A DNA stretch of 64,000 nt from Raja brachyura (lineage: Eukaryota): contig OY740787.1 in NCBI GenBank assembly GCA_963514005.1, forward strand, positions 38,254,001-38,318,000, in the 5' to 3' direction. A program made the position numbers and the translations under genes. Below, piece after piece: positions 2,516 through 60,777 of this stretch; position 1 is the first letter of the stretch, and each line of letters opens with the position of its first letter. The notes beneath the pieces are model-generated. The model searched no databases and was not told the origin of the DNA. It worked only from the letters and a program-made list of their open reading frames with translations.

Positions 2516-2780
2516 GGGTGCATTTTGTAAGGTGGTATGCTTCTTGTTCCATTAATGCTGGACCAGTACTCCTGCTGGTTTTCAGTGTTATCTCCTTCTC
2601 CACTGTACGATATTTGAAAATATTGGTGAATCGTTTCTTCTAACTACCTAATAACCTCTTCTTGCGACACAGCTCAGAACAGAGTGTTCATTTTGGATGT
2701 TTGACATTGAGCCTGTGAGTGTTGTGGTTGTCCACTGGAGTTAACAGCATGTAACTTGGGCCTCAGTGCTGGGAATATTG

Positions 2781-3812
2781 TAGCAATGTTACAAAATTTT
2801 GAGATTTTAAAAATCAAGTCTGCAATTTATCCCATCAGATAAAGCATAAAAAGAAGTTTAATTTGACACCTAATTTACTTTCATATCTTCAGTATTAAGA
2901 AAGTTATAGCCATTTTCATACTCGGAAATTAGCATCTTGCTCCCCATTGCCTTTCAATTGACAACTCAAAAGCTGTGATCTGGAAAAGTTAAAAGCCCAT
3001 AACTTTCTTAAAAATTAAGAGAACTCAACGAAATTTTCAGTTATTATAGATTGAAGCATTCTGAAACAAATATGAAACAATCTTACTTGGATGACCTGAA
3101 ATTAAAGCATATAATTAGTTAGTTATCTAATTGTAGCTAATTACAAAATTCAATTAGTAGATCTAAACATCTATCCATTTCTTAAGAAAAGATAAACTTT
3201 TTTTTAATTGCCTAAGTGGCCAAATAACATTCACACAATAATCCACAATATAACATAATTTTTAAATCTCATTTTCATGAATTTCTGGGCCAAATGGAAG
3301 GAATTTAGTGTTTGATTCCTGTAAATTAATGGCCATTTAAATCAACTAGCGAGTGAGTTTTAGTGGAATGCGGTGGATTGGAACGCTGCGGTTAGCGGTG
3401 AAGTTGGGAGGAAAAATACTGTTTGTTCATAGATTTTTTGGGACCCCATTTCGCAACATAAAAATATTATTAAAGCCTCCCGAAAAACCAACTTTTAATA
3501 TAAAAATAAACTATTTACCTTTTCTTCTCCCCTAAGCAAAATCCTTCCGGTTGTCGGTGCTCACGGCTTTTGAAGGTGATTTTTAAATTACTCTAGTTAA
3601 TAAATAATTTAGAGTAATTTAAAAATACCTTAATTGATGAAATGTCGGAGCGATTTTTCTTCCGCAACGAAATCGCCCGACATTCATCGATTTGGCCTGC
3701 CTGTTGAAAAACGGCACTTTAAGCCCGCCCCCCTCTGAAAAGCGCCAAACTCGCGCACACGGGGAGCGGCAGAACTGCAGCGCTGCTCAAGGTAAGTTTT
3801 GCAACATACCTA
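2781..3812. mobile_element. Non-autonomous DNA transposon, copy 1 of 3 (TAG..CTA ends, 7-bp TSD; hATw-like)
   Basis: Imperfect TIRs TAGCAATGTTACAAAA / TAGGTATGTTGCAAAA; TSD AATATTG at 2774-2780 and 3813-3819; nearly identical to 6868-7899 and 9391-10414. Confidence 0.9.
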
Positions 3813-3819
3813 AATATTG

Positions 3820-6799: not shown

Positions 6800-7970
6800 C
6801 TTAAGGAATCAAGAGATATGGGGAAAAAGCCGGAACTGATTTTGGATGATCAGCCACGATCATATTGTAGCAATGTTACAAAATTTTGAGATTTTAAAAA
6901 TCAAGTCTGCAATTTATCCCATCAGATAAAGCATAAAAAGAAGTTTAATTTGACACCTAATTTACTTTCATATCTTCAGTATTAAGAAAGTTATGGCCAT
7001 TTTCATACTCGGAAATTAGCATCTTGTTCCCCATTGCCTTTCAATTGACTTAACTTAAAAGCTGTGATCTGGAAAAGTTAAAAGTCCATAACTTTCTTAA
7101 AAATTAAGAGAACTCAATGAAATTTTCAGTTATTATAGATTGAAGCATTCTGAAACAAATATGAAACAATCTTACTTGGATGACCTGAAATTAAAGCATA
7201 TAATTAGTTAGTTATCTAATTGTAGCTAATTACAAAATTCAATGAGTAGATCTAAACATCTATCCATTTCTTAAGAAAAGATAAACTTTTTTAAAATTGC
7301 CTAAGTATCCAAATAACATTCACACAATAATCCACAATATAACATAATTTTTAAATCTCATTTTCATGAATTTCTGGGCCAAATGGAAGGAATTTAGTTT
7401 TTGATTCCTGTAAATTAATGGCCATTTAAATCAACTAGCGAGTGGGTTTTAGTGGAATGCGGTGGATTGGAACGTTGCGGTTAGCGGTGAAGTCGGGGTG
7501 AAAAATACTGTTTGTTCATACATTTCTTGGGAGCCCATTTCGCAACATAAAAATATTATTAAAGCCTCCCGAAAAACCAACTTTTAATATAAAAATAAAC
7601 TATTTACCTTTTCTTCTCCCCTACGCAAAATCCTTCCGGTTGTCGGTGCTCACGGCTTTTGAAGGTGATTTTTAAATTACTCTAGCTAATAAATAACAGA
7701 GTAATTTAAAAATACCTTCATTGATGAAATGTCGGAGCGATTTTTCTTCCGCAACCAAATCGCCCAACATTCATCGATTTGTCCTGCCTATTGAAAAACG
7801 GCACTTTAAGCCCGCCCCCCTCTGAAAGGCGCCAAAGTCGCGCACACGGGGAGCGGCAGAAGTGCAGCGCTGCTCAAGGTAAGTTTTGCAACATACTTAC
7901 ATATTGAATGGTGGTGCTGGCTCGAAGGGCTGAATGGCCTACTCCTGTGCCTATTTTCTATGTTTCTATG
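6800..7970 (+). mobile_element. CR1 3' tail split by DNA transposon copy 2
   Basis: gatcagccacgatcatattg | aatggtggtgctggctcgaagggc...ttttctatgtttctatg is continuous once 6868-7906 is removed. Confidence 0.85.
6868..7899. mobile_element. Non-autonomous DNA transposon, copy 2 of 3 (7-bp TSD)
   Basis: Same termini as copy 1; TSD CATATTG at 6861-6867 and 7900-7906, confirmed by the interrupted CR1 tail. Confidence 0.92.
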
Positions 7971-9015: not shown

Positions 9016-9390
9016 TCTCTGCTTCAAAATGTAAGGTCAGCACTTCATCAGCGCTGCTTCATTTTTATATTCATTTGCACAGAGGCTTGTTCTCCCCATG
9101 AGGCTAACATCCAGACTCGAATTGTGCTCCTTAATCCAATGCGATGGTGGCAAAGACTGCAATTTTCTGTGCTGGCAATGCACTGTACCCATCTAATCAC
9201 ACTTTCCACTTCACTGAACTAATCTCTATCTTGTCAAGTATATTTACCAATGGGCAATGAATGGATGCCCCAAAAAACTAAGGTGCAGCCGGAAATACAT
9301 TCAAAGGAAAGGAAAACCTGCTCTTAACGAATCAGGGGTGAATTATGTTAATTTCATGTCCCTGCCTCTTCAGCTCTGTGATGTAAAGAG

Positions 9391-10414
9391 TAGCAATGTT
9401 ACAAAATTTTGAGATTTAAAAAATCAAGTCTGCAATTTATCCCATCAGATAAAGCATACAAAGAAGTTTAATTTGACACCTAATTCACTTTCATATCTTC
9501 AGTATTAAGAAAGTTATGACCATTTTCATACTCGGAAATTAGCATCTTGTTCCCCATTGCTTTCAATTGACTTAACTCAAAAGCTGTGATCTAGAACCGT
9601 TAAAAGCCCATAAAATTAAGAGAACTCAATGAAATTTTCAGTTATTGTAGATGGAAGCATTCTGAAACAAATATGAAACAATCTTACTTGGATGACCTGA
9701 AATTAAAGCATATAATTAGTTGGTTATCTAATTGTAGCTAATTACAAAATTCAATGAGTAGATCTAAACATCTATCAATTTCTTAAGAAAAGATAAACTT
9801 TTTTTTAATTGCCTAAGTGTCCAAATAACATTCACACAATAACCCACAATATAACATAATTTTTAAATCTAATTTTTATGAATTTCTGGGCCAAATGGAA
9901 GGAATTTAGTGTTTAATGCCTGTAAATTAATGGCCATTTAAGTCAACTAGCGAGTGGGTTTTAGTGGAATGCAGTGGATTGGAACGTTGTGGTTTGCGGT
10001 GAAGTCGGGAGGAAAAATACTGTTGGTTCATACATTTTTTTTGGACCCCATTTCGCAACATGAAAATATTATTAAAGCCTCCATAAAAACCAACTTTTAA
10101 TATAAAAATAAACTGTGTACCTTTTTTTCTCCCCTACACAAAATCCTTCCCATTGTCGGCGCTCACGGCTTCTGAAGGTGATTTTTAAATTACTCTAGAT
10201 AATAAATAATCTAGTGTAATTTAAAAATACCTTCATTAATGAAATGTCGGAGCAATTTTACTTCCGCAACAAAATCGCCCGACATGGATCGATTTGCCCA
10301 GTCTGTAGAAAAACGGCACTTTAAGCCCGCCCCCCTCTGAAAGGCGCCAAAGCCACGCACACAGGGAGCGGCAGAACTGCAGCGCTGCTCAAGGTAATGT
10401 TTGTAACATACCTA
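9391..10414. mobile_element. Non-autonomous DNA transposon, copy 3 of 3 (7-bp TSD)
   Basis: Same termini; TSD TAAAGAG at 9384-9390 and 10415-10421; somewhat more diverged than copies 1 and 2. Confidence 0.9.
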
Positions 10415-22749: not shown

Positions 22750-23425
22750 TTAAGTACTGATGTGTCTTTTGGGGAACTCAGTGCTCCTAACCAGTTGTCA
22801 TTCTTAGAGTAACCCCAAACTCTGTTATAGCTCAACTCTGTAAATTAGTAAGATTAAACGAGAACTTACCTGTTCGAAGTTTGATCTTTATTTTATGAGG
22901 AGTTACGATGAGGGATTACGTGAAGAAGCCCCGCCTGGTGCTTGATCAGCATACTTCAAAGCAGCGGCATGAAAAACACAGAACCAATAGCCGGAGTAAT
23001 ATAGTAAGGCTCAACATAGACTAGAACTACCAGATGAACATTTATATTATGAGGGCTGGGAGCGGAGGGAATGTAATCCCTCATCGTAACTCCTCATAAA
23101 ATAAAGATCAAACTTCGAACAGGTAAGTTCTCGTTTAATCCTACTATTTTACTTCGGAATCACGTGAGTGACTACGTGAAGATTTTAAAGCTCTGTTTTT
23201 TATGTCGTAGATTCATTCCATACGACACTCTGTTTAGTCAATACAGTAGTGAGTAAATAATATTTTTTTAAACATTGTTTCAATTTATGTAATAAGTCTT
23301 TTAATCATAAAAAGAACATTTTTTAAAATAATAACCCCTGTATCCCAGGGGAAAAAATTTACAACAAAAGTGATAATGATATTAATTTTATAACATAAAT
23401 CGATAATATAAAACAAAGCAAGCAT

Positions 23426-24335
23426 TTAAAGCGAACCCAACACTGCATGTCCAAATCCTGGCACCGTGACAACAGGTTTATCGTAGAACTTTGGAAAAGT
23501 TTCTTCTTTACACCACCCTGCGGCCTCTAAAATTTGATCGAGTGGTATGTCCTGTACCTTCGCCGTGGACGCAGCTGCAGCCCTAGTGGAGTGATACTTA
23601 AACACATCAGTGTCCACTCCTGCTAAATCCAAAACCTGTTCTAACCATCTAGAAATGGTTTGAACTGCAACTTTTGTATGTGGTTTTTTGTGCGTTATCA
23701 GTAACGCTGTCTCAGCACCTCGGAGATTTTTGGTTACGTCAATATATTTAGTTAAATGCTTAACTACACACAATGTTTCATCGACAGGGTTTCCTATAAA
23801 CATTACCTGGGGTCTAGTTTTTCCTAGTCTGCTTTGTTTGATCAGATCATAAACATAAAACACAATGTTACCTGAAGCCACATGCATGCAATCTAACCGT
23901 AACAATTGCAAAGTTTGAGCAGCTCTTTGAGCTGAAACTAATGCCATTACATTACTACCTTGAATGTTAACCTTTGCAAAGACATTGAAGTAATTGGAGT
24001 CCATTGCCTAAGCAAAGTGAGAACAATGCTAACATCCCAAATTTCTGTATCTCTGGGCTTGGGAGGATTTTTATTAAAAATTCCTTTCATGAACCGGGAT
24101 ATTAATGGGTGAAACCCAATTGAATCTCGATCAGAAATTTGTCCTAAGTAGGACGACAATGCACTATAACTTAAGTGCTCATCAAAATGCAACCCAGCAA
24201 GGAACTCCAATACATTTGATATGTTCGCAGTATGATAAGATATCTTTGACTGTCTACAGAAGACTTCCCATTTCTTTATATGCGACACATATTGTTTTTA
24301 GTGCTATTTCTCCAAGCTGCAGCTATAACATCCAT
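23426..24335 (-). pseudogene. DIRS tyrosine recombinase (frameshifted)
   Basis: ORFs 23947-24288 and 23426-24004: ...ALVSAQRAQTL..., HSTRAAAAS (HxxR), AAGW, FPKFYDK (catalytic Tyr region). Confidence 0.9.
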
Positions 24336-24374
24336 GGTCCTATCTGACAGTCTAAGCTCTTGCAATGGTCTGGT

Positions 24375-24940
24375 CAGAACCTGCAGATTAACAAATTCAT
24401 ATGATCATGCAATGGATGAATTTATTTTGTTACTGGTTGTATCAACAATCGTTGCAACTAGGAATCGTCATACATGGTTCAATAATCATTTTAAGCATCA
24501 ACGGGAACCATGATTGTGTAGGCCAATTTGGCCCCACCAAAACGCCCTTGGCAGCGTCTTGCGCTATTTTCTTGAGACATTGCCCAATCAGACAGAATGG
24601 GGGAAAGGCATAAAAGAAAGTATTCCCCCAGTGTAGCGAGAAAGCATCCACCGCTACTGCCCCTGGATCGTGTTCTCATGACACGTATTTGGGCAATAGG
24701 TGATTTAATCTAGATGCAAACAGATCAATGTCTGGTACTCCAACCGACTGACAATATTTTTGAAAATTTGTGGATTTAACATCCATTCTGTACTGTCTTT
24801 ACATTTTCGTGATCTTTGGTCTGCCACAATATTGTCTCTCCCTGGAGACAAATAGCTGAAAACCGAATATTCTTACCAATACACCAATGCGACACCTGGT
24901 TAACCAGATGATCACATGATAATGATCTTACTCCACTCAT
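24375..24940 (-). pseudogene. DIRS RNase H end and DNA N6-adenine methyltransferase-like domain (frameshifted)
   Basis: IDLFASRLNH at ~24700-24730 and DAFSLHWGNTFFYAFPPF...PNWPTQSWFP in ORF 24442-24651. Confidence 0.8.
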
Positions 24941-26267
24941 GTGATTGATATATATGCCACAGCTGTGGTATTGTCTACTTGTAATTGGACATGCAAATCC
25001 TTCATAGTAGAACAATAAACTTTTAATCCATAAAATGCTCCCAGTAACTCCAAAGAATTTATACCATATGTTTGGAGCAATAAATCCTCTTGGACAGTCC
25101 ATCTGCCCCCACAGCTGGAATCATTATCCGTAACACCCCATCTGAGAGAACTTGCACCAGTTTGCAAAATCACTGCTGGCTGCTGAACCAAAATGTTTTT
25201 AACAGCTTGTGGAACATTCTCAATCCACCAATGCAATTCTAATAAAGCTTCCTTTGGTAATTGCATGGGCCTATCAAAATGGCCTGCTCGCTCTATAAGC
25301 GCTTGTGTTTTTGCCCTTTTGAGATTTTGGTAATGCTGTGGACCAAATTCTACTGCAGGGAATGCTGCTACTAACTTACCAATAACCTTAGCAACTTCTC
25401 GGATGGAGGGATAAGGTTTGTCAATAAGGCACTGACATACATTTGTAATATCAACAATCTTGTCTATTTGTAAAGTTACTAACATGGTAACTGAATTAAT
25501 CACAAACCCCAAATATTCAACAGTTTGGGATGGCTGTAACTTAGATTTTGTTGGATGAATCAGGAAACCTAGCCTTACAAACAGGCTTGTAGTCACCGAG
25601 ACTGATTTTTCAGCTGACTCCTGATTAGCATTGACAATTAAAATGTCATCTAGATAAGCCATAACGATGTGTTTTTGTGCCCTTAGCAGTGCAAGTGCTG
25701 GTTTCAACAATTAGTGAACAACCTAGTGAACAACCTAGGAGCTGAGCTTAATCCATTAGGTAATGTTTTGTATTACCACAGCTGTCCCATCCAATTAAAT
25801 TTCAATACCTGCGAAAGTGGCGATGAATTTGCACTGAATAATATGCATCCTTCAAATCTATTGTAGCCATGTCACAATCTGTTGAAACCAGCTGCATTGC
25901 AGTGTTGAAGGTATCCATTTTTAAATGTTTATACTGGACAAATGTATTAAAATGTGTGAGGTCTAAAATGATTCTACAACCCCCATTCCCCCTAAAATGA
26001 TTCTATAACCATCTTTATTTGGTCTGGGGAAAATATTTGATACAAATTGTTGTGGATCCTCACTTGATTTCTCGATAACTCCTTTTTTACACCAATTCTT
26101 AACTTCTTTAACAATTTGAATTTTTTCAAATACAGAAAACACCAAATACGATTAGGCTTATTCTGTCCTGATGGATCAATACCTTCTATAAAATCAATGG
26201 TAGATCCTAAGACAGTACCGAATATAACACGGTCAGATGTTATACAGTCCCTTTTAACATAACACAT
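24937..26267 (-). pseudogene. DIRS reverse transcriptase / RNase H (disrupted)
   Basis: FVSNIFPRPNKDGYRIIL, AYLDDILI, VEYLGFVINS, INSLELLG, VDNTTAVAYI motifs; several frameshifts and small duplications. Confidence 0.9.
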
Positions 26268-32024: not shown

Positions 32025-33529
32025 CGCTGTGGGGGAGGGGGCGTGTGAGGGTGGGGGGGCTGTTTATGTGGGGGAGGGGTGTGTGGGGGTGGTTTGGGTG
32101 GGGGAGGTGGTGGTGTGGGCGGGGGGCGGAGTGGTGTGGGGGGGAGAGGGTGGTGTGGGCGGGGGATGGGGTGATGTGGGGGGGAGAGGGAGTGGCGTGT
32201 GGGGGGGACGGAGTGGCCTGTGGGGGGGAGGGAGTGTTGTGGGGGGGAAGGAGTGGCGCGTGGGGGTGATGGAGTGGCGTGGGGAGGAGTGGCATAGGGG
32301 GGGAAGGAGTGGCATGGGGGGGAAGGAGTGGCATGGGGGCGTGATGGAGCGGCGTGGGGGGAAGGAGTGGCATGTGGGGGTGATGGAGTGGCATGGGGGG
32401 GAAGGAGTGGCGTGGGGGGATGGAGTGGCGTGGGGGGAAGGAGTGGCGTGTGGGGGGAGGGAGTTCCATGTGGGGGTGATGGAGTGGCGTGGGGGGTGAT
32501 GGAGTGGTGTGGGGGGTGATGGGGTGGCGTGGGGGGTGATGGAGTGGCGTGGGGGGTGATGGAGTGGCGTGGGGGGGAAAGAGTGGCATGGGGGGGTGAT
32601 GGAGTGGCGTGGGGGGAGGGAGTTCCGTGTGGGGGGAGGGAGTTCTGTGTGAGGGGAGTGAGTTCCGTGTGGGGGGAGGGAGTGGCATGTGGGGGGAAGG
32701 AGTTCCGTGTGGGGGTAATGGAGTGGTGTGGGGGGGTGATGGAGTGGCGTGGGGGGTGATGGAGTGGCGTGGGGGGTGATGGAGTGGCGTGGGGGGTGAT
32801 GGAGTGGCGTGGGGGGTGATGGAGTGGCGTGGGGGGTGATGGAGTGGCGTGGGGGGGGATGGAGTGGCGTGGGGGGGGATGGAGTGGCGTGGGGGGGGAT
32901 GGAGTGGCGTGGGGGGGGATGGAGTGGCGTGGGGGGGATGGAGTGGCGTGGGGGGGGATGGAGTGGCGTGGGGGGGGATGGAGTGGCGTGGGGGGGGATG
33001 GAGTGGCGTGGGGGGTGATGGAGTGGCGTGGGGGGTGATGGAGTGGTGTGGGGGGAGGAATGGGGGTGGGGAAAAGAGGGAGTATGGGTGTGTGGGGGTG
33101 TGTGGGGTGGGGGGGGACCACTCAGCGGCCACCGGCATGGCACCACACTGCACCTCCCAATTCCACACAGCGGCTTTCCCGACTCCACACAGCAGATTTC
33201 CCGACTCCACTCTTGCGGACCCAATCAGCACGGCTTGCTTACTCAGCCCCGCCTCCGGGTCTTTATTCTCCAGCAGGTGCCGGAAGGGACATTACCTTCA
33301 TGGTGACAGACAGGCAAGAAGTCCAATCTCTGCTGATCTCATAACTTTTTAAACCTTCATAATTTTTCCCATATTCACTGATCGGAACAAATCTTGGTGG
33401 GTTGGACCAGAGAAGAACGGTGAGTAAGATGGCAAAATAATCCTAGTGATATAGGGTAGCATTTGTGTGCAAATTTAATTAAACGCAGACCAGAAGTGGT
33501 CAAGATGAGAGTTTTAGTAATAGTATAGA
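32025..33529 (-). mobile_element. Non-autonomous Helitron-like element (3' end not found)
   Basis: Minus strand begins A|TCTATACTATTACT at 33530/33529; 33240-33525 is homologous to 48195-48470, which belongs to an element ending in hairpin+CTAG. Confidence 0.65.
32028..33115. repeat. G-rich minisatellite, 20-bp unit GGGGGGTGATGGAGTGGCGT
   Basis: Near-perfect tandem units at 32720-33045, more degenerate toward the left. Confidence 0.95.
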
Positions 33530-34665: not shown

Positions 34666-35550
34666 TCTCGCAGTACATGAAGAAGTGAATGGAACCAGCA
34701 TTGTCTGTCAGATCTAAACTGCATTATCAAGGTCTTCTGCTGCACAATTCTCCCGTGTAATTATATATTTCCTTGACATCACCACTGAATGATTCTCAAG
34801 CCACTTCAGACTAATTGTTTTACCCCATTTTCCCACTTGGTTCTTTTGCCACTTACTTAAATTCTATGTATTCCATTAACATCTCTCATACTTATGATCA
34901 TCTCTCTTAAATCACCGGTCGACACAAAATACTGGAGTACTCAGCGGGACAGACCGCATCTCTGGAGACGTCTTGGGTCAAGATCTTTCTTCAAACTGAT
35001 GTCAAGGGAATGGACGGGACAGAGATAGAATGTAGTCGGAGATAGTCAGACAGGTGGAAGAACTGAGAAGGGGGATGGGATGGAGAGAGAGGGAAAGCAA
35101 GGGCTATTTGAAGTTAGAGAAGTCAATGTTCCTACCGCTGGGTTTTAAGCAACCCCAAAGGAAATACGAGGTGCTGTTCCTCCAATTTGTGTTGGGTCAG
35201 ATTGGGAATGGGAGGTGTCTTGGACATGGGTAGGGAGGGATTGGACCGGAGTTGAGGTATGTCTAAATTAATTTGATGGGACATGAACAAGCGGAAACAA
35301 TGGGTCTGCCAGGACAGTTGTGTTTGGGGATTTTGGGGAGAAGATAAAATCGGGCCGTGTGGGCCTGGGGAATGATAAGGTTGGAAGCTTTAGAGGGCAG
35401 AGAACCGGAAGTAGTTAAAATCAGAAATGGTGTGTGATATTAAGGTCTGGTACTGGGGCCATGGTCCAAGGATAAGTAGGAGGAGGTGTCAGAGTTGTCG
35501 CCTGGCCTCAGCCCGGTAGCTGTCGGTGGGTTTGATTATCAAGTCTTATC

Positions 35551-36264
35551 ACTCAGTCTTCCCGTGGATTTTGAAGCAACAGCAACAAAGAGAAGCAGGA
35601 GAAAGCACTGATTGGCTCTAGCCCAAGTGGGAGGAGAGTTCTCAGTGAGTCAGAGGGGGAGAGCAGTTAAAAAGGAGAGGCAAAGCACAGGCAGACTTCA
35701 CTCAGTCTTCCCGTGGATTTTGAAGCAACAGCAACAAAGAGAAGCAGGAGAAAGCACTGATTGGCTCTAGCCCAAGTGGGAGGAGAGTTCTCAGTGAGTC
35801 AGAGGGGGAGAGCAGTTAAAAAGGAGAGGCAAAGCACAGGCAGACTTCACTCAGTCTTCCCGTGGATTTTGAAGCAACAGCAACAAAGAGAAGCAGGAGA
35901 AAGCACTGATTGGCTCTAGCCCAAGTGGGAGGAGAGTTCTCAGTGAGTCAGAGGGGGAGAGCAGTTAAAAAGGAGAGGCAAAGCACAGGCAGACTTCACT
36001 CAGTCTTCCCGTGGATTTTGAAGCAACAGCAACAAAGAGAAGCAGGAGAAAGCACTGATTGGCTCTAGCCCAAGTGGGAGGAGAGTTCTCAGTGAGTCAG
36101 AGGGGGAGAGCAGTTAAAAAGGAGAGGCAAAGCACAGGCAGACTTCACTCAGTCTTCCCGTGGATTTTGAAGCAACAGCAACAAAGAGAAGCAGGAGAAA
36201 GCACTGATTGGCTCTAGCCCAAGTGGGAGGAGAGTTCTCAGTGAGTCAGAGGGGGAAAGCAGTT
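35551..36264 (+). repeat. 149-bp tandem monomers (~4.8 copies) forming the CR1 5' UTR
   Basis: Unit starts at 35551, 35700, 35849, 35998 and 36147; the full units look identical; each carries ATTGG (reverse CCAAT) and TGAGTCA. Confidence 0.95.
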
Positions 36265-36463
36265 CCTCAAAACTGAGGAATTTGGTTTGTAAATTAGGCA
36301 ATTGAACAGTCAATATAAGCAAGGCAGCTCTTGGGGAGAGGCAGTGAGGGAGTGGTCTTGTGAGGGAAGTGCCCTGTGAGTAAAGTGTGAGTCTTTGGCT
36401 CGAGAGTCTTCGGCGAGGAGGCTGCGCAAAATACTGGATAGGGCGAGACCGAGGCAAAAGAAG

Positions 36464-37390
36464 ATGTCAAGCAAGCTGATGCAGTGTGATGCTTGCAGTA
36501 TGTGGGAGGTCAAGGACACTGCTGGTGCCTCTGGATGCTACAAATGTGAGAAGTGCATCCAGGTACAGCTCCTGAAGGACCGTGTTGGGGAACTGGAGAA
36601 ACAAGTGGATGACCTCAGGTTCATTCGAGAAACTGAGTCGTTTCTCGACAAGTCCTTCAGTGAGATTGTTACACCCAAGGCACTAGAAGAGAGAAGGTGG
36701 GTGACGGTGAGAAAGGGAGGAAAACATGGGATGCAAAGGTCCCCGGGTGTTGTACCTCTTGTGAACAGGTTCACCCACGTGGAAGCTGCCGGGACAGAAG
36801 ACGGTATCCCACTGAGCGGCGGACTGGCTTGCCAAACAAAAAGGGCTGATGAGCCAAACCCACAGAGGCCAAAGTCGGGCAACGCCATTGTAGTTGGAGA
36901 CTCCATTGTGAGAGGTACGGACAGGGGTTTTTGCGGCAACAGACGGGATTCCAGGATGGTGTGCTGCCTTCCTGGTGCCAGGATCCAGGATGTTACGGAC
37001 AGAGTGCAGACAATCCTCAAGGGCGAAGGTGACCAGCCGGAAGTGGTCGTGCATGTTGGCACAAATGATGTTGGAAAGAAGGAGATTAATTTTTTGCAGC
37101 GGGACTTCAGAGAGCTCGGAAAAATGCTGAAAAGCAGGACTTCCAGGGTTGTTATCTCCGGTTTGCTTCCAGTTCCTCGTGCTGGCGAGAGCAGGAACAG
37201 GGTGATATGGGACCTGAATGTGTGGCTGAGGAACTGGTGCAGGGGGCAGGGATTTAGATTCTTAGATCACTGGGATTTTTTTTATAGTAAGGGGGAACTG
37301 TACAAAAGGGATGGATTGCATCTTAACAGGTGGGGGACCAGCATTCTGGCCGGCAGGTTTGCCACTGCTACACGGATGGTTTTAAACTGA
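36464..37390 (+). CDS. CR1 ORF1p: zinc finger/coiled coil plus SGNH (GDSL-like) esterase domain
   Basis: CDAC...CEKC followed by heptad LLKDRVGELEKQVDDL; GDSIVR, HVGTND and DGLHLN blocks; first ATG at 36464 (ORF track starts 36395). Confidence 0.93.
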   Translation: MSSKLMQCDACSMWEVKDTAGASGCYKCEKCIQVQLLKDRVGELEKQVDDLRFIRETESFLDKSFSEIVTPKALEERRWVTVRKGGKHGMQRSPGVVPLVNRFTHVEAAGTEDGIPLSGGLACQTKRADEPNPQRPKSGNAIVVGDSIVRGTDRGFCGNRRDSRMVCCLPGARIQDVTDRVQTILKGEGDQPEVVVHVGTNDVGKKEINFLQRDFRELGKMLKSRTSRVVISGLLPVPRAGESRNRVIWDLNVWLRNWCRGQGFRFLDHWDFFYSKGELYKRDGLHLNRWGTSILAGRFATATRMVLN

Positions 37391-40305
37391 ATAAGGGGGG
37401 TGGGGTATCAAATGGGATAGTCGAGGACGGAGTTAGAGGGAAAGAGAGTAAAGCGATGGTTAATGACCCCAGAATTAACGGGGAAGAAAGCTCACAAAGA
37501 GATAGGAGAGTATGGCCAAGTGTAATAGGGATCGATGTGAAAGGGGCCACTTGTCAACATAATTGTATAAGGAGTAAGAGTGTTGTAAAAACAAGCCTGA
37601 AGGCTTTGTGTCTCAATGCGAGGAGCATTCGTAATAAGGTGGATGAGTTGAAGGTGCAGATAGCGATTAATGACTATGCTATAGTTGGAATCACGGAGAC
37701 TTGGCTCCAGGATGACCAAGGCTGGGAGCTGAACATCCAGGGATATTCAATATTCAGGAGAGATAGACGAAAAGGAAAAGGAGGTGGGGTAGCGTTGCTG
37801 GTGAGAGAGGAGATTAATGCAATAGAAAGGAAGGACATTAGCGTGGAGGATGTGGAATCGATATGGGTAGAGCTGCGAAACTCTAAGGGGCAGAAAACGC
37901 TAGTGGGAACTGTGTACAGGCCACCTAACAGTAGTATTGGAGTTGGGGATGGCATCAAACGGGAAATTAGAAATGCGTGCAACAAGGGTAACACGGTTAT
38001 AATGGGTGACTTCAATCTGCATGTAGATTGGGTGAATCAAATTGGCAGGGGTGCTGAGGAAGAGGATTTCCTGGAATGTATGCGGGATAGTTTTCTCAAC
38101 CAACATGTGGAGGAACCAACGAGAGAGCAGGCTATTCTAGACTGGGTATTGAGTAATGAGGAAGGGTTAGTTAGCAGTCTTGTTGTGCGTGGCCCCTTGG
38201 GCAAGAGTGACCATAATATGGTTGAGTTCTTCATTAGGATGGAGAGTGACAAAATTAAGTCAGAAACAAGGGTTCTGAACTTGAACAAAGGTAACTTTGA
38301 AGGTATGAGATGTGAATTGGCCAAGATAGACTGGCAGGTGATTCTTAAAGGGTTGACAGTGGATGTGCAATGGAAGGTATTTAAAGACTGCATGGATGAA
38401 GTACAAAAGTTGTTCATACCAGTTTGGCAAAAGAATAAATCGGGGAAGGTGGTGCATCCATGGATAACAAGGGAAATCAGGGATAGTATAAAAACAAAAG
38501 ATGAGGCATACAAATTTGCCAGAAAAAGCAGCCTACCGGAGGACTGGGAGAAATTCAGAATCCAGCAGAGGAGGACAAAGGGCTTAATTAGGAAAGGGAA
38601 AATAGATTATGAAAGGAAACTGGCAGGGAACATAAAAACTGACTGCAAAAGTTTTTATAGATATGTAAAGAGAAAGAGACTAGTTAAAACAAATGTTGGT
38701 CCCTTGCAGTCAGAAACAGGTGAATTGATCATGGGGAACAAGGACATGGCAGACCAATTGAATAACTACTTTGGTTCTGTCTTCACTAAGGAAGACATAA
38801 ATAATCTGCCGGAAATAGCAGTGGAACGGGGGTCAAATAAGATGGAGGAACTGAGTGAAATCCAGGTTAGCCGGGAGGTGGTGTTGGGTAAATTGAACGG
38901 ATTGAAGGCCGATAAATCCCCAGGGCCAGATAGTCTGCATCCCAGAGTACTCAAGGAGGTAGCCACAGAAATAGTGGATGCATTAGTGATAATTTTTCAA
39001 AATTCCTTAGATTCTGGAGTAGTTCCTGAGGATTGGAGGGTAGCTAATGTAACCCCACTTTTTAAAAAAGGAGGGAGAGAGAAAGCGGGGAATTACAGAC
39101 CAGTTAGTCTAACATCGGTAGTGGGGAAACTGCTAGAGTCAGTTATTAAAGATGGGATAGCAGCGCATTTGGAAAGTGGTGAAATCATTGGACAAAGTCA
39201 GCATGGATTTACGAAAGGTAAATCATGTCTGACAAATCTGATAGAATTTTTCGAGGATGTAACTAGTAGAGTGGATAAGGGAGAACCAGTGGATGTGTTA
39301 TATCTAGACTTTCAGAAGGCTTTCGACAAGGTCCCGCATAAGAGATTAGCATACAAACTTAAAGCACACGGTATTGCGGGTTCAGTATTGATGTGGATAG
39401 AGAACTGGCTAGCAGACAGGAGGCAAAGGGTAGGAGTAAACGGGCCCTTTTCAGAATGGCAGGCAGTGACTAGTGGGGTGCCGCAAGGCTCAGTGCTGGG
39501 ACCCCAGCTATTTACAATATATATTAATGATTTGGACGAGGGAATTCAATGCAACATCTCCAAATTTGCAGATGATACCAAGCTGGGGGGTATAGTTAGG
39601 TGTGAGGAGGATGCTTGGAGGCTGCAGGGTGATTTGGATAGGCTGAGTGAATGGGCAGATGCATGGCAGATGCAGTACAATGTGGATAAATGTGAGGTTA
39701 TCCACTTTGGTGGCAAAAACATGAGGGTAGACTATTATCTGAATGGTGGCAGATTAGGTAAGGGGGAGATGCAACGAAACCTGGGTGTCATGGTACACCA
39801 GTCATTGAAAGTAGGCATGCAGGTGCAGCAGGCAGTGAAGAAAGCAAATGGTATGTTAGCATTCATAGCGAAAGGATTTGAGTTTAGGAGCAGGGAGGTT
39901 CTACTGCAGTTGTACAGGGTTTTGGTGAGGCCACACCTGGAGTACTGCGTACAGTTTTGGTCTCCAAATCTGAGGAAAGACATCCTTGCCATAGAGGGGG
40001 TACAGAGAAGATTCACCAGACTGATTCCTGGGATGTCAGGACTTTCATATGAGGAAAGATTGGATAGACTCGGTTTGTACTCGATGGAATTTAGAAGATT
40101 GAGGGGGGATCTTATAGAAACCTACAAAATTCTTAAGGGGTTGGACAAGCTAGATGCTGGGAGATTGTTCCCGATGTTGGGGGAGTCCAGAACAAGGGGT
40201 CACAGTCTAAGGATAAGGGGGAATTCCTTTAGGACCGAAATGAGGAAAACATTCTTTACAGAGAGTGGTGAGTCTCTGGAATTCTCTGCCACAGAAGGTA
40301 GTTGA
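37330..40305 (+). CDS. CR1 ORF2p: APE endonuclease plus reverse transcriptase (C-terminal frameshift near 40260)
   Basis: LNARS, GITETW, YRPP, GDFN, SDH endonuclease motifs; NYRPVSL, QHGF, DFQKAFD, GVPQGSVLGP, FADD RT motifs. Versus the 19043 copy it lacks 2 nt at ~40260; the family stop would be 40400-40402. Confidence 0.95.
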   Translation: MGDQHSGRQVCHCYTDGFKLNKGGGVSNGIVEDGVRGKESKAMVNDPRINGEESSQRDRRVWPSVIGIDVKGATCQHNCIRSKSVVKTSLKALCLNARSIRNKVDELKVQIAINDYAIVGITETWLQDDQGWELNIQGYSIFRRDRRKGKGGGVALLVREEINAIERKDISVEDVESIWVELRNSKGQKTLVGTVYRPPNSSIGVGDGIKREIRNACNKGNTVIMGDFNLHVDWVNQIGRGAEEEDFLECMRDSFLNQHVEEPTREQAILDWVLSNEEGLVSSLVVRGPLGKSDHNMVEFFIRMESDKIKSETRVLNLNKGNFEGMRCELAKIDWQVILKGLTVDVQWKVFKDCMDEVQKLFIPVWQKNKSGKVVHPWITREIRDSIKTKDEAYKFARKSSLPEDWEKFRIQQRRTKGLIRKGKIDYERKLAGNIKTDCKSFYRYVKRKRLVKTNVGPLQSETGELIMGNKDMADQLNNYFGSVFTKEDINNLPEIAVERGSNKMEELSEIQVSREVVLGKLNGLKADKSPGPDSLHPRVLKEVATEIVDALVIIFQNSLDSGVVPEDWRVANVTPLFKKGGREKAGNYRPVSLTSVVGKLLESVIKDGIAAHLESGEIIGQSQHGFTKGKSCLTNLIEFFEDVTSRVDKGEPVDVLYLDFQKAFDKVPHKRLAYKLKAHGIAGSVLMWIENWLADRRQRVGVNGPFSEWQAVTSGVPQGSVLGPQLFTIYINDLDEGIQCNISKFADDTKLGGIVRCEEDAWRLQGDLDRLSEWADAWQMQYNVDKCEVIHFGGKNMRVDYYLNGGRLGKGEMQRNLGVMVHQSLKVGMQVQQAVKKANGMLAFIAKGFEFRSREVLLQLYRVLVRPHLEYCVQFWSPNLRKDILAIEGVQRRFTRLIPGMSGLSYEERLDRLGLYSMEFRRLRGDLIETYKILKGLDKLDAGRLFPMLGESRTRGHSLRIRGNSFRTEMRKTFFTESGESLEFSATEGS

Positions 40306-41031
40306 GGCCAGTTCATTGGCTATATTTAAGAGGGCGTTAGATGTGGCACTTGTGGCTAAAGGGATCAGGGGGTATGGAGAGAAGGCAGGTACGGGATACT
40401 GAGTTGGATGATCAGCCATGATCACATTGAATGGCGGTGCAGGCTCGAAGGGCCGAATGGCCTACTCCTGCACCTATTTTCTATGTTTCTATGTTTCTAA
40501 GTCAGGGTTGCTGCAGAGTGAGCGGAGGGCTGTACATTCATGGGGGAGAGGTTAGAGTAAGTAAGGCGAGTAGAAAGGTTGAGGCAGTTGATGTCCCACC
40601 GGTAGTCGGAAATGAAAAGGTCTAAAGTAGGTAGAGAGCCATTCGGGAGAGTCTAAGAGGAGGGGGTCTGGTGGAGACAGGAGAAGGGGTCATCGCTGGG
40701 TGGTGAGGACCTCTTCCCATAGAAATAGGCATGGAGGCGGAGGTGACGGAAGAAGAACTTTAGATCATGGCAGACCTGGAACTCGTTGAGGTAGGGGCGG
40801 AGGGGAACAAAGGTGAGGCCTCTGCTGAGGACAGATCGTTCCGTATCAGAAAGGGGGAAGTCAGAGGGGATGGTGAATGCACGGCAAATGGTAAATCCCT
40901 TTTACTTTCTCCATGCTAAAAAGAGAAAACCAGGTCTGCTTAATGGATAACATGGGTTACAACTTAAATCTTATTCTGGGCCTACTGTGTTCCTCTTCTG
41001 ACAGATCAGAACATTAGTATGAAACTAAGGT

Positions 41032-41808: not shown

Positions 41809-42934
41809 ATATCAGGATCCTTTCGGAGAGTGAAATTGTCTTTCAAGTGCAGCAATAGATCAATTGAACAATCATCTAGTGAGGGTCCATTATTACAGAG
41901 AAATTGTTGGAATGAATCATCTTTTAGTTACATTGCCTCTAGTGCTTCGGGGAGATGAGTGTAGGCTGTGATGATTCTCAATGAGTTCCTGTCACTTTCT
42001 CCTGTGGGGAGTTTGTCCACCTGTCCGCTGTGTCTGACCTTACTTGTTAAAGATTGGGAGTACTTTGTTGTCAATAAGTGCAGCCAGTAATCACCTTAGA
42101 GGTGGCAGTGGCACCCTGAAAATGAAGCCGAGTTTAAAAAAAGACAAGTAGCTGGATTCTCGGACCTTGGCTTTCTGGCCAAGCAAGAATCTTCAGCTAG
42201 GTGACAGTTGTTGCAGGATATTTTATTACAATTGTAGGCTGTGAATTAATGAAGGAATGTAAAATACAGTATAATTCTAAACCTAATGTACGGCAGGGAA
42301 TGAGTTACAGACTAGTCTAATCAAGGACTTTATATAATGTGTAGTAATAAAGATATGGAGCTGTACAGCACGGAAACAGGCCCTTAGGGCTACCTTTCCC
42401 ATGCCAACGTTTAGCATGCTGGGCTGATCCCATTTACCTGCATTTGGCCTATGGCCCTCGAAAACTTATGTATCCATATAGCTGTTCAAGGCTGGTGGAT
42501 ACCAGAGAATGAATTACAGGCAGAAATGTAATTTTACTTCGGAGTCACGCGAGTGACTAGGTGAAGAAGCCCCACCAGGCGGATGCTCGGCATTACGTCG
42601 ACGCATGTCGGTAAGGAATGGGCTGCAGATCGCAGCTCCACCAGCGGTGAGTAACAGGCCCGCAGGTAAGTGGGTTGAAATTACTTCCTGGGTAGAAACT
42701 CCGTGACGCTGGCTGGAATAGCCAAGGTGAGTTGGGAAGTTTAAAAAAATAATAATTTTTAAAAATGGACACGGTAAAAAAAATCGGTGCGGGGAAAGCG
42801 CGTCCCGGCTGGAAACACATTTAAGATCGGGACCACAGATTAGTACGGAGCCGGTTCCAATACCGGTAGCCGTTGACCCTGCCGTAGTTCAGCCTTTAGA
42901 TGCTCCACAGCCACAGGCCACGAAGGGTACTCCA

Positions 42935-43562
42935 GTGGAGGACTTGCATGTTCAATTACAAGTAGACAATACCACAGCTGTAGCATATATCAATTACATG
43001 GGTGGAGTAAGATCAGTATCATGTGATCATCTGGTCAACCTGATGTGGAATTGGTGTGTATCTAGGAATATCTGGCTTTCAGCTATCTATCTCCCAGGGA
43101 AAGACAATGTTGTGGCAGACAACAGATCACGGGAGTTTAAACACAATACAAAATGGATGTTAAATCCACAAATTTTCCAAAAAATTGTCAATCGGTATGG
43201 TGTACCAGACATTGATCTGTTTGCGTCCAGATTAAATCACCAATTGCCTAAATACGTGTCATGGGAGCCTGACCCAGGAGCTGTAGCATTGGAAGCATTC
43301 TCGCTACATTGGGGAATTTTCTATGCTTTTCCCCCATTTTTGCCTGATTGGGCAATACCTCAGTAAAATAGAGCAAGACTCTGCCACGAGTGTTTTGGTG
43401 GTTCCAAACTGGCCTACACAGCCATGGTTCCCATTGATGCTTAGAATGATAATTGAACCATTTATGACGATTCCCAGCTCCAGGGATTTGTTGGTACAAC
43501 CAGTGACCGAACAAGTTCATCCATTGCATGATCATATGAATTTGTTCATCTGCAGGTTCTGA
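42935..43562 (+). pseudogene. DIRS RNase H end plus methyltransferase-like domain (frameshifted)
   Basis: ORFs 42935-43366 and 43323-43562: NVVADNRSR, IDLFASRLN, EAFSLHWG.FYAFPP, VPNWPTQPWFP. Confidence 0.85.
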
Positions 43563-43600
43563 CCAGACCATTACAAGGGCTTGGACTGTCGGATAGGACC

Positions 43601-44524
43601 ATGGATGTCATAACGTCAGCTTGGAGAGACAGCACTAAGAAACAATATGTCTCACATAAAGAAATGGTAAGTTTTTTGTACTGTCAGATATATCTTATCA
43701 TACTGCAAACATATCGGATGTATTGGTGTTCCTTGCTATGTTACATTTTGATGAGCACCTTAGTTATAGTGCCATTAATAGCGCTCGTAGTGCTTTGTAT
43801 TCCTATTGACGACAATTTTCAGAACATCTATCTATCGGGTCTCATCCATTAATATCACGATTTATGAGAGGGATTTTAATTAAAAAAATCCTCCCAAACC
43901 CAGATATAAAGAAATTTGGGATGTTAGTATAGTTCTCACATTGCTTCAGCAATGGGCTCCAATTACGTCACTGTCTTTTCAGAAATTAACATTTAAAGTA
44001 GTAATGCTTATGGCATTAGTGTCAGCACAAAGAATACAAACATTGCGAATGTTACGTTTAGATTGTATGCATTTGTCTGCAGATAACATTACTTTTTATG
44101 TTTATGATCTAATCAAACAAAGCAGACTGGGGAAGTCTGGAACCAAGACTCTTTAGAGCATATCCAGTCGACCAAACATTGTGTGTGGTTAAGCATCTGA
44201 CTCAATATATTGAAGTAACCAAGAGTCTCAGAGGTTGTGAGACAACAATGCTTATTGCCCATAAAAAACCATACAAAAAAGTATCAGTACAAACTATTTC
44301 TAGATGGTTAAACAGGTTTGGATTTGGCTGGAGTAGACACTGATGTGTTTAAATCCCACGCCACCAGGGCAGCGTCCACGTCCGCGGCGATGGCACAGGA
44401 CGTGCCGCTCGACCAAATTTTAGAGGCCGCAGGGTGGTGTAAAGAAGAAACTTTTTCCAAGTTTTACAATAAACCTGTTATCATGGTGCCAGAGTTTGGA
44501 CATGCAGTGTTGGGTTCTGTTTGA
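43601..44524 (+). pseudogene. DIRS tyrosine recombinase (frameshifted)
   Basis: AWRDSTKKQY, LVSAQRIQTL, HATRAASTS, AAGW, FSKFYNK. Confidence 0.88.
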
Positions 44525-45302
44525 TTATTTGTTTTCTTTTATGTAATGATTCATATCTTTTGTTGTAATTTCCCCTATGATAGAGGGGTATTACTTTTCT
44601 TTCTTTTATTATTATTAAAATACTTATTGCATTATTCAAGCAATGTTCAATAATATTATTTACTCACTACTGTGTCAACTGAAGCAGTGTGTCGTATGGA
44701 CTGAATCTACAGCATGAAAATCACAGAGCTTCAAAATCTTCACATAGTCACTCACGTGACTCCGAAGTAAAATAGTAAGATTAAACGAGAACTGACCTGT
44801 TCGAAGTTTGATCTTTATTTTATGAGGAGTTACGATGAGGGATTACATGCCCTCCGCTCCCGACCCTCATAATCTAAACTATCATCTGGTAGTTCTAGTC
44901 TTGTGTGAGCCTTACTATCTTACTTCAGCTATTGGTTCTGTGATTTTCACGCCGCTGCTATGAAGTATGCCGAGCATGCGCCTGGCGGGGCTTCTTCACG
45001 TAATCCCTCATCGTAACTCCTCATAAAATAAAGATCAAACTTCGAACAGGTAAGTTCTCGTTTAATCTTACTATTAAATCTTAGTATGCTATATATACAC
45101 CAGTTGATAATGCAATCTGAGATTTGTGTTAATCAAGAGGCTTTGATGGTCTTTGATAACTTGCACCTTTGAGATTTAAGGGCAGCCGACCTTTGGTGGT
45201 GCTGGTGACCTGGCCTGTCATTTGGTACGATCCAGATTGAGAAGTGTGACCTGACTGTTTTCAGAGCACTCAGAGGCAAGAAAGAGATACCTCACTTTAG
45301 GA

Positions 45303-58564: not shown

Positions 58565-60777
58565 ATCCTTGTGATTGAGGCAGTGCAGCGTAGGTTCACA
58601 AGATTGATCTCTGGGATGGCGGGACTGTCGTATGAGGAAAGATTGAAAAGACTAGGCTTGTATTCACTGGAGTTTAGAAGGGTGAGGGGGGATCTTATAG
58701 AAACACATAAAATTATAAAAGGACTGCACAGGCTAGATGCAGGAAAAATGTTCCCAATGTTGGGCGAGTCCAGAACCAGGGGCCACAGTCTTAGAATAAA
58801 GGGGAGGTCATTTAAGACTGAGGTGAGAAAAACATTTTCACCCAGAGAGTTGTGAATTTGTGGAATTCCCTGCCACAGAGGGCAGTGGAGGCCAAGTCAC
58901 TGGATGGATTTAAGAGAGAGTTAGATAGAGCTCTAGGGGCTAGTGGAGTCAATGGATATGGGGAGAAGGCAGGTACGGTTTATAACCATATAATATAATA
59001 TAACCATATAACAATTACAGCACGGAAACAGGCTTCTCGGCCCTTCCAGTCCGTGCCGACCATTTATTTTCCCCTAGTCCCATCTACCTGCACTCAGACC
59101 ATACACCTCCATTCCCTTGCCGTCCATCTACCTATCCACTTCACTTTTAAATGTTAAAATCGATCCTGCCTCCACCACTTCTGCTAGAAGATCATTCCAC
59201 ACAGCCACCACTCTCCGAGTAAAGAAGTTCCCCCTCATGTTACCCCTAAACGTCTGTCCCTTAATTCTCAAGTCATGCCCTCTTGTTTGAATCTTCCCTA
59301 CCCTCAATGGGAAAAGCTTATCCACGTCAACTCTGTCTATCCCTTTCATCATTTTAAAGATCTCAATCAAGTCCCCCCTTAACCTTCTGCGCTCCAAAGA
59401 ATAAAGACCTAACTTGTGCAACCTTTCTCTGTAACTTAGTTGCTGGAACCCAGGCAACATTCTAGTAAATCTCCTCTGTACTCTCTCTATTTTGTTGACA
59501 TCCTTCCTATAATTAGGCAACCAAAATTGTACACCATACTCCAGAATTGGTCTCACCAATGCCTTGTACAATTTTAACATTACTTCCCTACTCCTATATT
59601 CAATGCTCTGATTTATAAAGGCCAGCACACCAAAAGCTTTCTTTACCACCCTATCTACATGCGATTCCACCTTCAGGGAACTATGCACAGTTATTCCTAG
59701 ATCCCTCTGTTTCACAGCATTCCTCAATTCCCTACCATTTACCATGTACGTCCTATTTTGATTTGTCCTGCCAAGATGTAGCACCTCACACTTATCAGCA
59801 TTAAACTCCATCTGCCATCTTTCAGCCCACTCTTCCAAATGGCCCAAATCTCTCTGTAGACTTTGAAAATCTACTTCATTATCCACAGCACCACCTATCT
59901 TAGTATCATCTGCATACTTACTTATCCAATTTTCCACCCCATCATCTAAATCATTGATGTACATGACAAACAACAGTGGACCCAACACAGATCCCTGAGG
60001 CACCCCACTGGTCACCGGCTTCCACCCTGACAAACAGCCATCCACCATTACTCTCTGGCATCTCCCATTCAGCCACTGTTGAATCCATCTTGCTACTCCG
60101 CCATTAACACCCAAAGATTGAACCTTCTTAACCAACGTTCCATGTGGAACCTTGTCAAAGGCCTTACTGAAATCCATATAGACAACATCCACTGCTTTAC
60201 CCTCATCAATTTCCTCTTCTAGTAACCTCTTCAAAAAATTCAAGAAGGTTTGTCAAACATGACCTTCCAGGCACAAATCCATGTTGACTGTTCTTGATCA
60301 GGCCCTGTTTATCCAGATGCTTATATATATTATCTCTAAGTATCCTTTCCATTAATTTGTCCACCACTGACGTTAAACTAACTCGTCTATAATTGCTAGG
60401 TTTATTCTTTGAACCCTTTTTAAACAATGGAACAACATGCGCAGCACGCCAATCCTCCGGCACTATTCCCGTTTCTAATGCATTTGAAATATTTCTGTCA
60501 TAGCTCCTGCTATTTCTACACTAACTTCCCTCAATGTCCTAGGGAATATCCTGTCGGGACCTGGAGACTTATCCACTTTTATATTTTTCAAAAGTGTCAG
60601 TACTTCCTCCTCTTTGAATCTCATAGTTGCCATAACTACTCTACTTTTTTCCCTTACCTCACAGAGTTCAATATCTTTCTCCTTGATAGGGGACGATCAG
60701 CCATGATCACAATGAATGGCGGTGCTGGTTCGAAGGGCCGAATGGCCTCCTCCTGCACCTATTTTCTATGTTTCTAT
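58565..60777 (+). mobile_element. 5'-truncated CR1 (outer), split at ~58982/60683
   Basis: ORF2 end IEAVQRRFTRLISGM... to aggtacggttta, resuming ttgataggggacgatcagcc...tttctatg. Confidence 0.85.
58982..60682 (-). mobile_element. 5'-truncated CR1 (inner, different family) with RT region
   Basis: ORFs 60206-60463 and 59128-60243: NYRRVSLTS, QHGF, DFSKAFD, GVPQGSVLGP, YADD; (tatggtta)-like tail. Confidence 0.92.

Follow-up and report, generated by a model that had tools for sequence, protein, structure and literature searches.

How are the endonuclease (EN) as well as the reverse transcriptase (RT) of a CR1 long interspersed nuclear element (LINE) translated when its open reading frame 1 (ORF1) ends in a stop codon upstream of them? 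The question is raised by a CR1 element of the cartilaginous fish Raja brachyura, lying in a stretch of 64,000 nucleotides (contig OY740787.1, positions 38,254,001 to 38,318,000; assembly GCA_963514005.1) that we call the window. A first-pass annotation of this DNA had proposed that a programmed −1 ribosomal frameshift at the heptamer U_UUA_AAC joins ORF1 to the second open reading frame (ORF2), as in gag-pol. Comparison with related elements supports this proposal: judging from the phase of the heptamer, its conservation, the open −1 linker behind it and a family that has no AUG ahead of its endonuclease, we consider it very probable that ORF2 of the esterase-type CR1 LINEs of vertebrates is reached by −1 frameshifting, yielding an ORF1–ORF2 fusion protein.

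The last codons of ORF1 in the window copy read ATG GTT TTA AAC TGA, which places TTTAAAC in the X XXY YYZ phase with the stop codon adjoining it (Table 1). The −1 frame is open from 37327 to 40305 and reads ..FK/LNKGGGV.. across the site, a G-run begins 7 nt past the heptamer, and the first in-frame ATG of ORF2, with G at both −3 and +4, stands in a strong context ahead of the endonuclease. Pfam identified the esterase in ORF1 and the EN and RT in ORF2, and in all these respects the junction was found as the first-pass annotation had described it. A single copy makes a weak case, and the motif in it could be due to chance; because the 10-mer TTTAAACTRR occurs in the window at chance level (once, against 1.05 expected), and because ORF1 contains other in-phase canonical heptamers (three in 308 codons, that at the junction included), the case rests on comparison. 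The two further heptamers lie at 37276-37282 (a U-run) and 36925-36931 (G GGT TTT), and there is none in the 972 codons of ORF2; the U-run varies among relatives, and ribosomes slipping by −1 at it would run into a stop before 37327.

Relatives of the element were collected from this genome by protein searches with divergent ORF1 homologues and by follow-up fetches, and were sorted into family A (that of the window element) and families B, C, D and E. Families C and D resemble each other closely (89% across ORF2), and family E looks like a recombinant, combining a C/D-type junction with an A/B-type endonuclease start (L173, G000:C21:16171840-16174140; −1 frame open over a 77-codon linker), so that the five families represent about three deep lineages. 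Identical 600-nt stretches were collapsed to give 136 ORF1 ends, from which we removed eight whose frame was broken before the stop; five of these still carry the motif in another frame. TTTAAAC closes ORF1 in 124 of the 128 distinct intact ends that remain, drawn from the five families, and the other four differ from it by one base. The stop codon behind the heptamer varies (TAG in 66, TAA in 50, TGA in 12). The first endonuclease motif lay in the −1 frame in 106 of the 128 ends, 98 of them without an intervening stop; in 13 it lay in another frame, always with intervening stops, and in nine it was not found. The same TTTAAAC-stop junction is present in a further CR1 lineage, L031, from a metagenome contig. 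This was the only CR1 among 16 metagenome loci, the other 15 being rejected as unrelated esterases without a downstream endonuclease; searches for DNA of distant or amniote relatives gave no loci in viral contigs, and a single weak match of 20 residues to a genome contig was rejected. Family D, as a separate observation, lacks three residues from the last helix of ORF1 and keeps the heptamer.

The motif also recurs in the published consensuses of other vertebrates (supplement to PMC13343379), for which the first 400 nt were covered, some of them with deletions, and in which junctions were judged by eye with frames unscored. TTTAAAC followed by a stop occurs 23 times in the list and, among 22 occurrences examined, 18 lie at the end of ORF1 and four elsewhere; the hosts of the 18 are alligator, crocodile, bearded dragon, bullfrog, coelacanth, bowfin, halosaur, elephant shark, stingray, sawfish, catshark and dogfish. 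Twelve alternative spellings, most of them tried with TAG only, were found at no CR1 ORF1 end in these consensuses. When consensuses were selected instead by the spelling of the catalytic D-G-L-H, seven CR1 rows were obtained, and all six with a visible end carry the motif.

Linkers, folding and quadruplexes were analysed in nine representative elements. The linker to the endonuclease spans 31–77 codons and has no stop in the −1 frame in any of the nine, against one to nine stops in each other frame (0, 8 and 9 in frames −1, 0 and +1 of the window linker). Shuffled linkers were open in 0–25% of cases, and that of the window in none of 500. The linkers are poorly alignable and unequal in length, yet the −1 frame is always open. 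The first in-frame AUG is not conserved: it is codon 23 past the heptamer in family A (10 of 10 open copies), codon 7 in family C (20 of 21) and codon 1 or 8 in family B (41 and three, respectively, of 44 open copies), and families D (22 of 22) and E (one of one) have none ahead of the endonuclease. A conserved junction, an ORF2 consistently in the −1 frame, a stop-free linker and a variable ATG had been named in the first-pass annotation as the marks of frameshifting, and the comparison bears out all four. Family D is large. Alignment succeeded for 24 of its 25 long copies, which in their majority state keep the frame open over 984 codons counted from the heptamer; the disruptions are mostly private. 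Its first Met is codon 266, past all four endonuclease motifs (codons 55, 82, 187 and 255), and reinitiation at an AUG therefore cannot supply the family D endonuclease. The linker of family B, we note in passing, comes as 43 or 64 codons (L047, L048), a 63-nt in-frame difference.

These data bear directly on the alternative that survives best, and which we judge unlikely, namely that ribosomes terminate at the ORF1 stop and reinitiate without making a fusion, using UAAUG in family B, an AUG close by in families A and C, and an AUG-less restart in families D and E. UAAUG is also present in some of the published shark consensuses, SART1 is described as using UAAUG coupling (PMC3894237, PMC10275272), and initiation of L1 ORF2 is termed AUG-independent in the LINE passages of PMC5009743. 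Reinitiation predicts, however, neither a fixed −1 frame, nor a fixed T-TTA-AAC spelling, nor a linker that is free of stops upstream of the AUG. An AUG overlapping or adjoining the ORF1 stop occurs only in most of family B and is absent in A, C, D, E and L031; even within family B, the subfamily L226, with an open ORF2 of 972 codons, carries TAGTG in place of UAAUG. Behind the stop of the window family, an out-of-frame AUG comes first (at 37412, reading Met-Gly-stop, ahead of that in frame), and family D has no AUG to offer before the endonuclease.

Downstream of the heptamer, four or more consecutive G begin at +11 in 112 of the 128 ends and at +8 in 11 (123 of 128 in total), and the spelling of this run persists even as the −1 residues that it encodes change. 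Stimulators of frameshifting usually lie 5–9 nt downstream. In most families the run starts 7 nt past the stop, and it is thus at the usual distance if the stop occupies the A site. The G-run can also be seen in most of the published rows; in halosaur, bowfin and one dogfish row it is weak or missing. The region behind the heptamer is nearly free of C (4–11 in 70 nt), and, on a G4Hunter-type score, the window G-run ranks in the top 0.1% of the element's 25-nt segments. ViennaRNA predicted a quadruplex in six of the nine elements, A, C and L031 not among them; the G-quadruplex stimulator suggested in the first-pass annotation is not established, since for the family of the window element itself none is predicted. 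To judge from its conservation, the G-run probably belongs to the signal, and it may act as a quadruplex, through a bound protein or as a helper to a pause at the stop.

An AT-rich 7-mer and a G-run that are conserved at the nucleotide level would suit any nucleic-acid signal, and the junction might instead serve as an internal TATA-like promoter, as a splice signal or as a site of transcriptional slippage that puts ORF2 in frame. We consider this very improbable. No conserved AG or GT marks a splice site, because the stop varies among TAG, TAA and TGA; a transcript from an internal promoter would still need an AUG, which family D lacks; and the runs measure no more than 3–4 nt. Copies derived through editing or splicing would carry the change, yet no fetched family has ORF1 and ORF2 in one frame.

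To compare the spelling of the heptamer with the codons around it, the five elements A, B, C, D′ and L031 were aligned, and the last 60 codons upstream were used. Identities, computed against family A only, are 50–68% in the last 50 residues of ORF1 and 29–49% in the linker. The terminal Leu is TTA and the Asn AAC in all five elements, and the codon before TTA ends in T in all five, though it encodes V, D, T, A or H. Eighteen degenerate residues upstream are conserved as amino acids, and a single codon is kept in four of these and in none of the five leucines. Fixation at the junction is thus at the level of codons, beyond protein constraint; with Leu-Asn-stop taken as given, the codon usage of ORF1 lends this spelling a probability of about 0.012 per lineage.

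A protein search gave 225 hits, 151 of them with a complete esterase C-terminus, which formed 85 clusters at 70% identity. Thirty-seven clusters end in Leu-Asn, and none of these has at position −3 a residue without a T-ending codon (K, E, Q, M or W), against a background of 16.5% (P 0.001); with stricter clustering (55%) the count was none of 20 (P 0.017). The tripeptide F-K-L, the −1 reading of TTT AAA CT, stands at this place in two database proteins from frame-broken copies (P0038 and P0121) and in the ORF2 model P0241, the only one of 33 ORF2 homologues that reaches far enough upstream. No clean natural in-frame ORF1–ORF2 fusion was found among the longer proteins, where six gene-model-like matches are weak evidence either way. 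More distant esterase ORF1 proteins end in Q-G-N (eight clusters), S-G-N (one) or S-K-N (one), which hints, at the protein level, at G GGA AAC and A AAA AAC. Two further database entries deserve mention: P0120, a folliculin-interacting protein model that terminates in a CR1 esterase with RRALN, is either an exonization or a gene-model artefact, and P0020, a shark-type CR1 ORF1 filed as a Pseudomonas aeruginosa SGNH hydrolase, is probably host contamination. That Leu-Asn is kept merely for the last helix of the esterase, with frame relation and codons simply inherited, would suit the common ancestry of the CR1 families and the frequency of Leu-Asn termini and is hardly credible, being already largely refuted by the codon-level data, in which synonymous codons are fixed only at this site, and having to account for linkers that are unequal in length and poorly alignable, yet always open in −1, and for a family D left without means of making its endonuclease.

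Several observations weigh against frameshifting. In family B the AUG overlaps the stop as UAAUG in 41 of the 44 open copies, and families A and C each have an early AUG of their own; no variant of the window's ATG was seen among the best 40 of 113 rows from four related runs, the contigs of which gave no informative joint. The genome copies are best-scoring matches and two of the DNA queries contained the heptamer, so that the counts show stability and not independence, and the copies are themselves non-independent, coming from about three deep lineages in one genome and a single contig. The protein profile (A1) was derived from proteins ending in Leu-Asn and favours these, and 34 of the 85 esterase clusters end in a residue other than Asn. 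Finally, nested folding gave no conserved hairpin or pseudoknot in the nine elements (z from −1.6 to +0.8; 0.0 over 100 nt in the window), and duplex scans gave no conserved long-range pairing partner; a recurring match 435 nt upstream was rejected as a coding-constrained CCLPG stretch.

Taking both sides together, the junction is deeply conserved and is most simply read, on this comparative evidence, as a site of programmed −1 frameshifting, a variant of known recoding. Most ribosomes would terminate at the stop and release ORF1 protein (ORF1p), and a minority would pause, with tRNA-Leu and tRNA-Asn re-pairing from UUA and AAC to UUU and AAA. Reading would continue at CUR to give an ORF1–linker–EN–RT fusion with the junction ..RMVLN-LNKGGG.., predicted at about 1,313 amino acids in intact sister copies and presumably made at a low ratio to ORF1p. 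The pause would come from the adjacent stop together with the G-run rather than from a pseudoknot, and the fusion could recruit free ORF1p, by way of the coiled coil, onto the RNA bound by the RT. More tentatively, and with rather less than even confidence, we suggest that a single recoding module may be common to the esterase-ORF1 retroelements of animals, its heptamers being interchangeable (U_UUA_AAC in the CR1 of vertebrates, G_GGA_AAC or A_AAA_AAC in distant relatives ending in Q-G-N or S-K-N); in this module a G-run rather than a pseudoknot, as a natural G-quadruplex or the site of a G-binding protein, would be the stimulator with the stop in the A site, and the fusion would tether an esterase ORF1p that has no folded RNA-binding domain to the RNA-bound RT.

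U_UUA_AAC is the slippery site of coronaviruses, and the CR1 junction resembles those of coronavirus ORF1a/1b and retroviral gag-pol in having an in-phase X XXY YYZ that ends the first ORF, with the enzyme ORF in −1. It differs from them in that no pseudoknot or stable hairpin follows, in the stop directly behind the heptamer and in the absence, by Pfam, of a protease domain to cleave the fusion. The C-rich motif of arteriviruses has a spacing of roughly 10 nt. In that system the stimulator is reported to be a bound protein, PCBP/nsp1-beta, instead of an RNA structure (PMC5009743); the CR1 motif is G-rich and has no known binding protein, and the likeness is an analogy only. Among elements without long terminal repeats (non-LTR) and of the apurinic/apyrimidinic endonuclease (APE) type, a −1 shift is stated for TRE5-A and TRE3-A of Dictyostelium, which share the ORF1/APE-RT layout and differ in clade, host and ORF1, the comparison being with the published statement. 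In CR1 the signal is a fixed heptamer-stop-G-run where an esterase ORF1 closes, and it extends across the jawed vertebrates. Penelope-like elements, in which ORF1 may be set apart by a frameshift that has a pseudoknot (legend to Fig. 1 of PMC8557442), belong to another order of retroelements and have a GIY-YIG endonuclease; no such pseudoknot was found in CR1. SART1 and human L1 share with CR1 a bicistronic LINE RNA, and SART1-like UAAUG is seen in CR1 family B, but these elements make a separate ORF2 protein and need neither a slippery site nor a fixed frame.

The window element (35549-40499, plus strand) is a young, near-full-length CR1 LINE, its assignment being drawn from its domains, its tail and a junction resembling published CR1 consensuses. 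Its features are collected in Table 1. The 5′ array may serve as a promoter; 5′ tandem arrays of this kind, and an esterase ORF1, are described for CR1-group elements in section 15 of PMC13343379. Homologues of ORF1 were found in sharks, rays, coelacanth and turtle, the best named ones being proteins of skate, ray and shark. Near 40258 this copy has lost 2 nt, which limits its ORF2 to 972 codons, against 1005 from the heptamer in three sister copies. A first look gave 1,802 candidates for family A in the genome, and the family is young, since the 40 that were scored are 99–100% identical across the junction. The sequence AAGTC at the two ends of the element (35539-35543 and 40499-40503) may be a 5-bp target-site duplication, a few additional bases being present on the 5′ side.

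Table 1. Positions of the CR1 features in the window.
Feature	Position	Strand	Details
5′ array (5′ untranslated region)	35549..36264	+	149-bp unit, 4.8 copies, 99% matches
ORF1, 308 amino acids: N-terminal Cys motifs, SGNH/GDSL esterase, C-terminus ..RMVLN	36464..37390	+	Pfam PF13472, E 3e-12
Slippery heptamer T TTA AAC, in phase	37381..37387	+	Sequence; comparison among copies
ORF1 stop, directly 3′ of the heptamer; TGA in this copy	37388..37390	+	
Conserved G-run GGGGGG-T-GGGG, candidate stimulator	37395..37405	+	First G at +8 in this copy, at +11 in other families
Linker of 74 codons, open in the −1 frame as far as the first endonuclease motif	37387..37608	+	
First in-frame ORF2 ATG, codon 23 past the heptamer, specific to family A	37456..37458	+	
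ORF2 endonuclease and reverse transcriptase, −1 frame	37609..40305	+	Pfam PF03372, PF14529, PF00078
3′ terminal (TTTCTATG)n repeat, free of poly(A)	40478..40499	+	

Elsewhere in the window, a second CR1 ORF2 (59218-60633, minus strand) is truncated, broken and 58% identical to the first, and the family D junction occurs in several of its closest matches in the genome. An ORF at 42731-43366 (plus strand) gave only a weak Pfam match, to PCIF1_WW; its motifs resemble those of DIRS-type RNase H and methylase domains. Repeats include an inverted copy of this region with 82% identity, 20 kb away (22846-25004 against 42936-45073), three copies of a 1-kb repeat that are 92–97% alike (2775-3819, 6862-7906 and 9390-10414) and, 2.5 kb upstream of the CR1 element, a G-rich tandem array of a 20-bp unit (32110-33055, 47.7 copies) with a strong GC skew.

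Full-text literature searches gave us no paper on CR1 frameshifting; the CR1 papers of 1997–2003 and the Repbase entries lie outside that coverage and may mention it. Neither ‘frameshift’ nor ‘slippery’ occurs in the main text of PMC13343379 as available, and the LINE passages of the review PMC5009743 describe other mechanisms. The matter concerns a group of elements described as the dominant retrotransposons of most vertebrates, making up 22–34% of shark and ray genomes (PMC13343379). A 2016 review gave the natural use of a G-quadruplex in frameshifting as then not known, and the CR1 junction may be a natural case of frameshifting stimulated by a G-run. PMC3894237 describes the translation of LINE ORF2 as an open question; how an esterase ORF1p joins the ribonucleoprotein without an RNA-binding domain is asked in section 13 of PMC3905857. 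If our reading is true, a Gag-Pol-like fusion would explain how ORF2 of CR1 is translated, the annotated starts of CR1 ORF2 would be wrong, and the fusion would offer the esterase ORF1p a route into the ribonucleoprotein.

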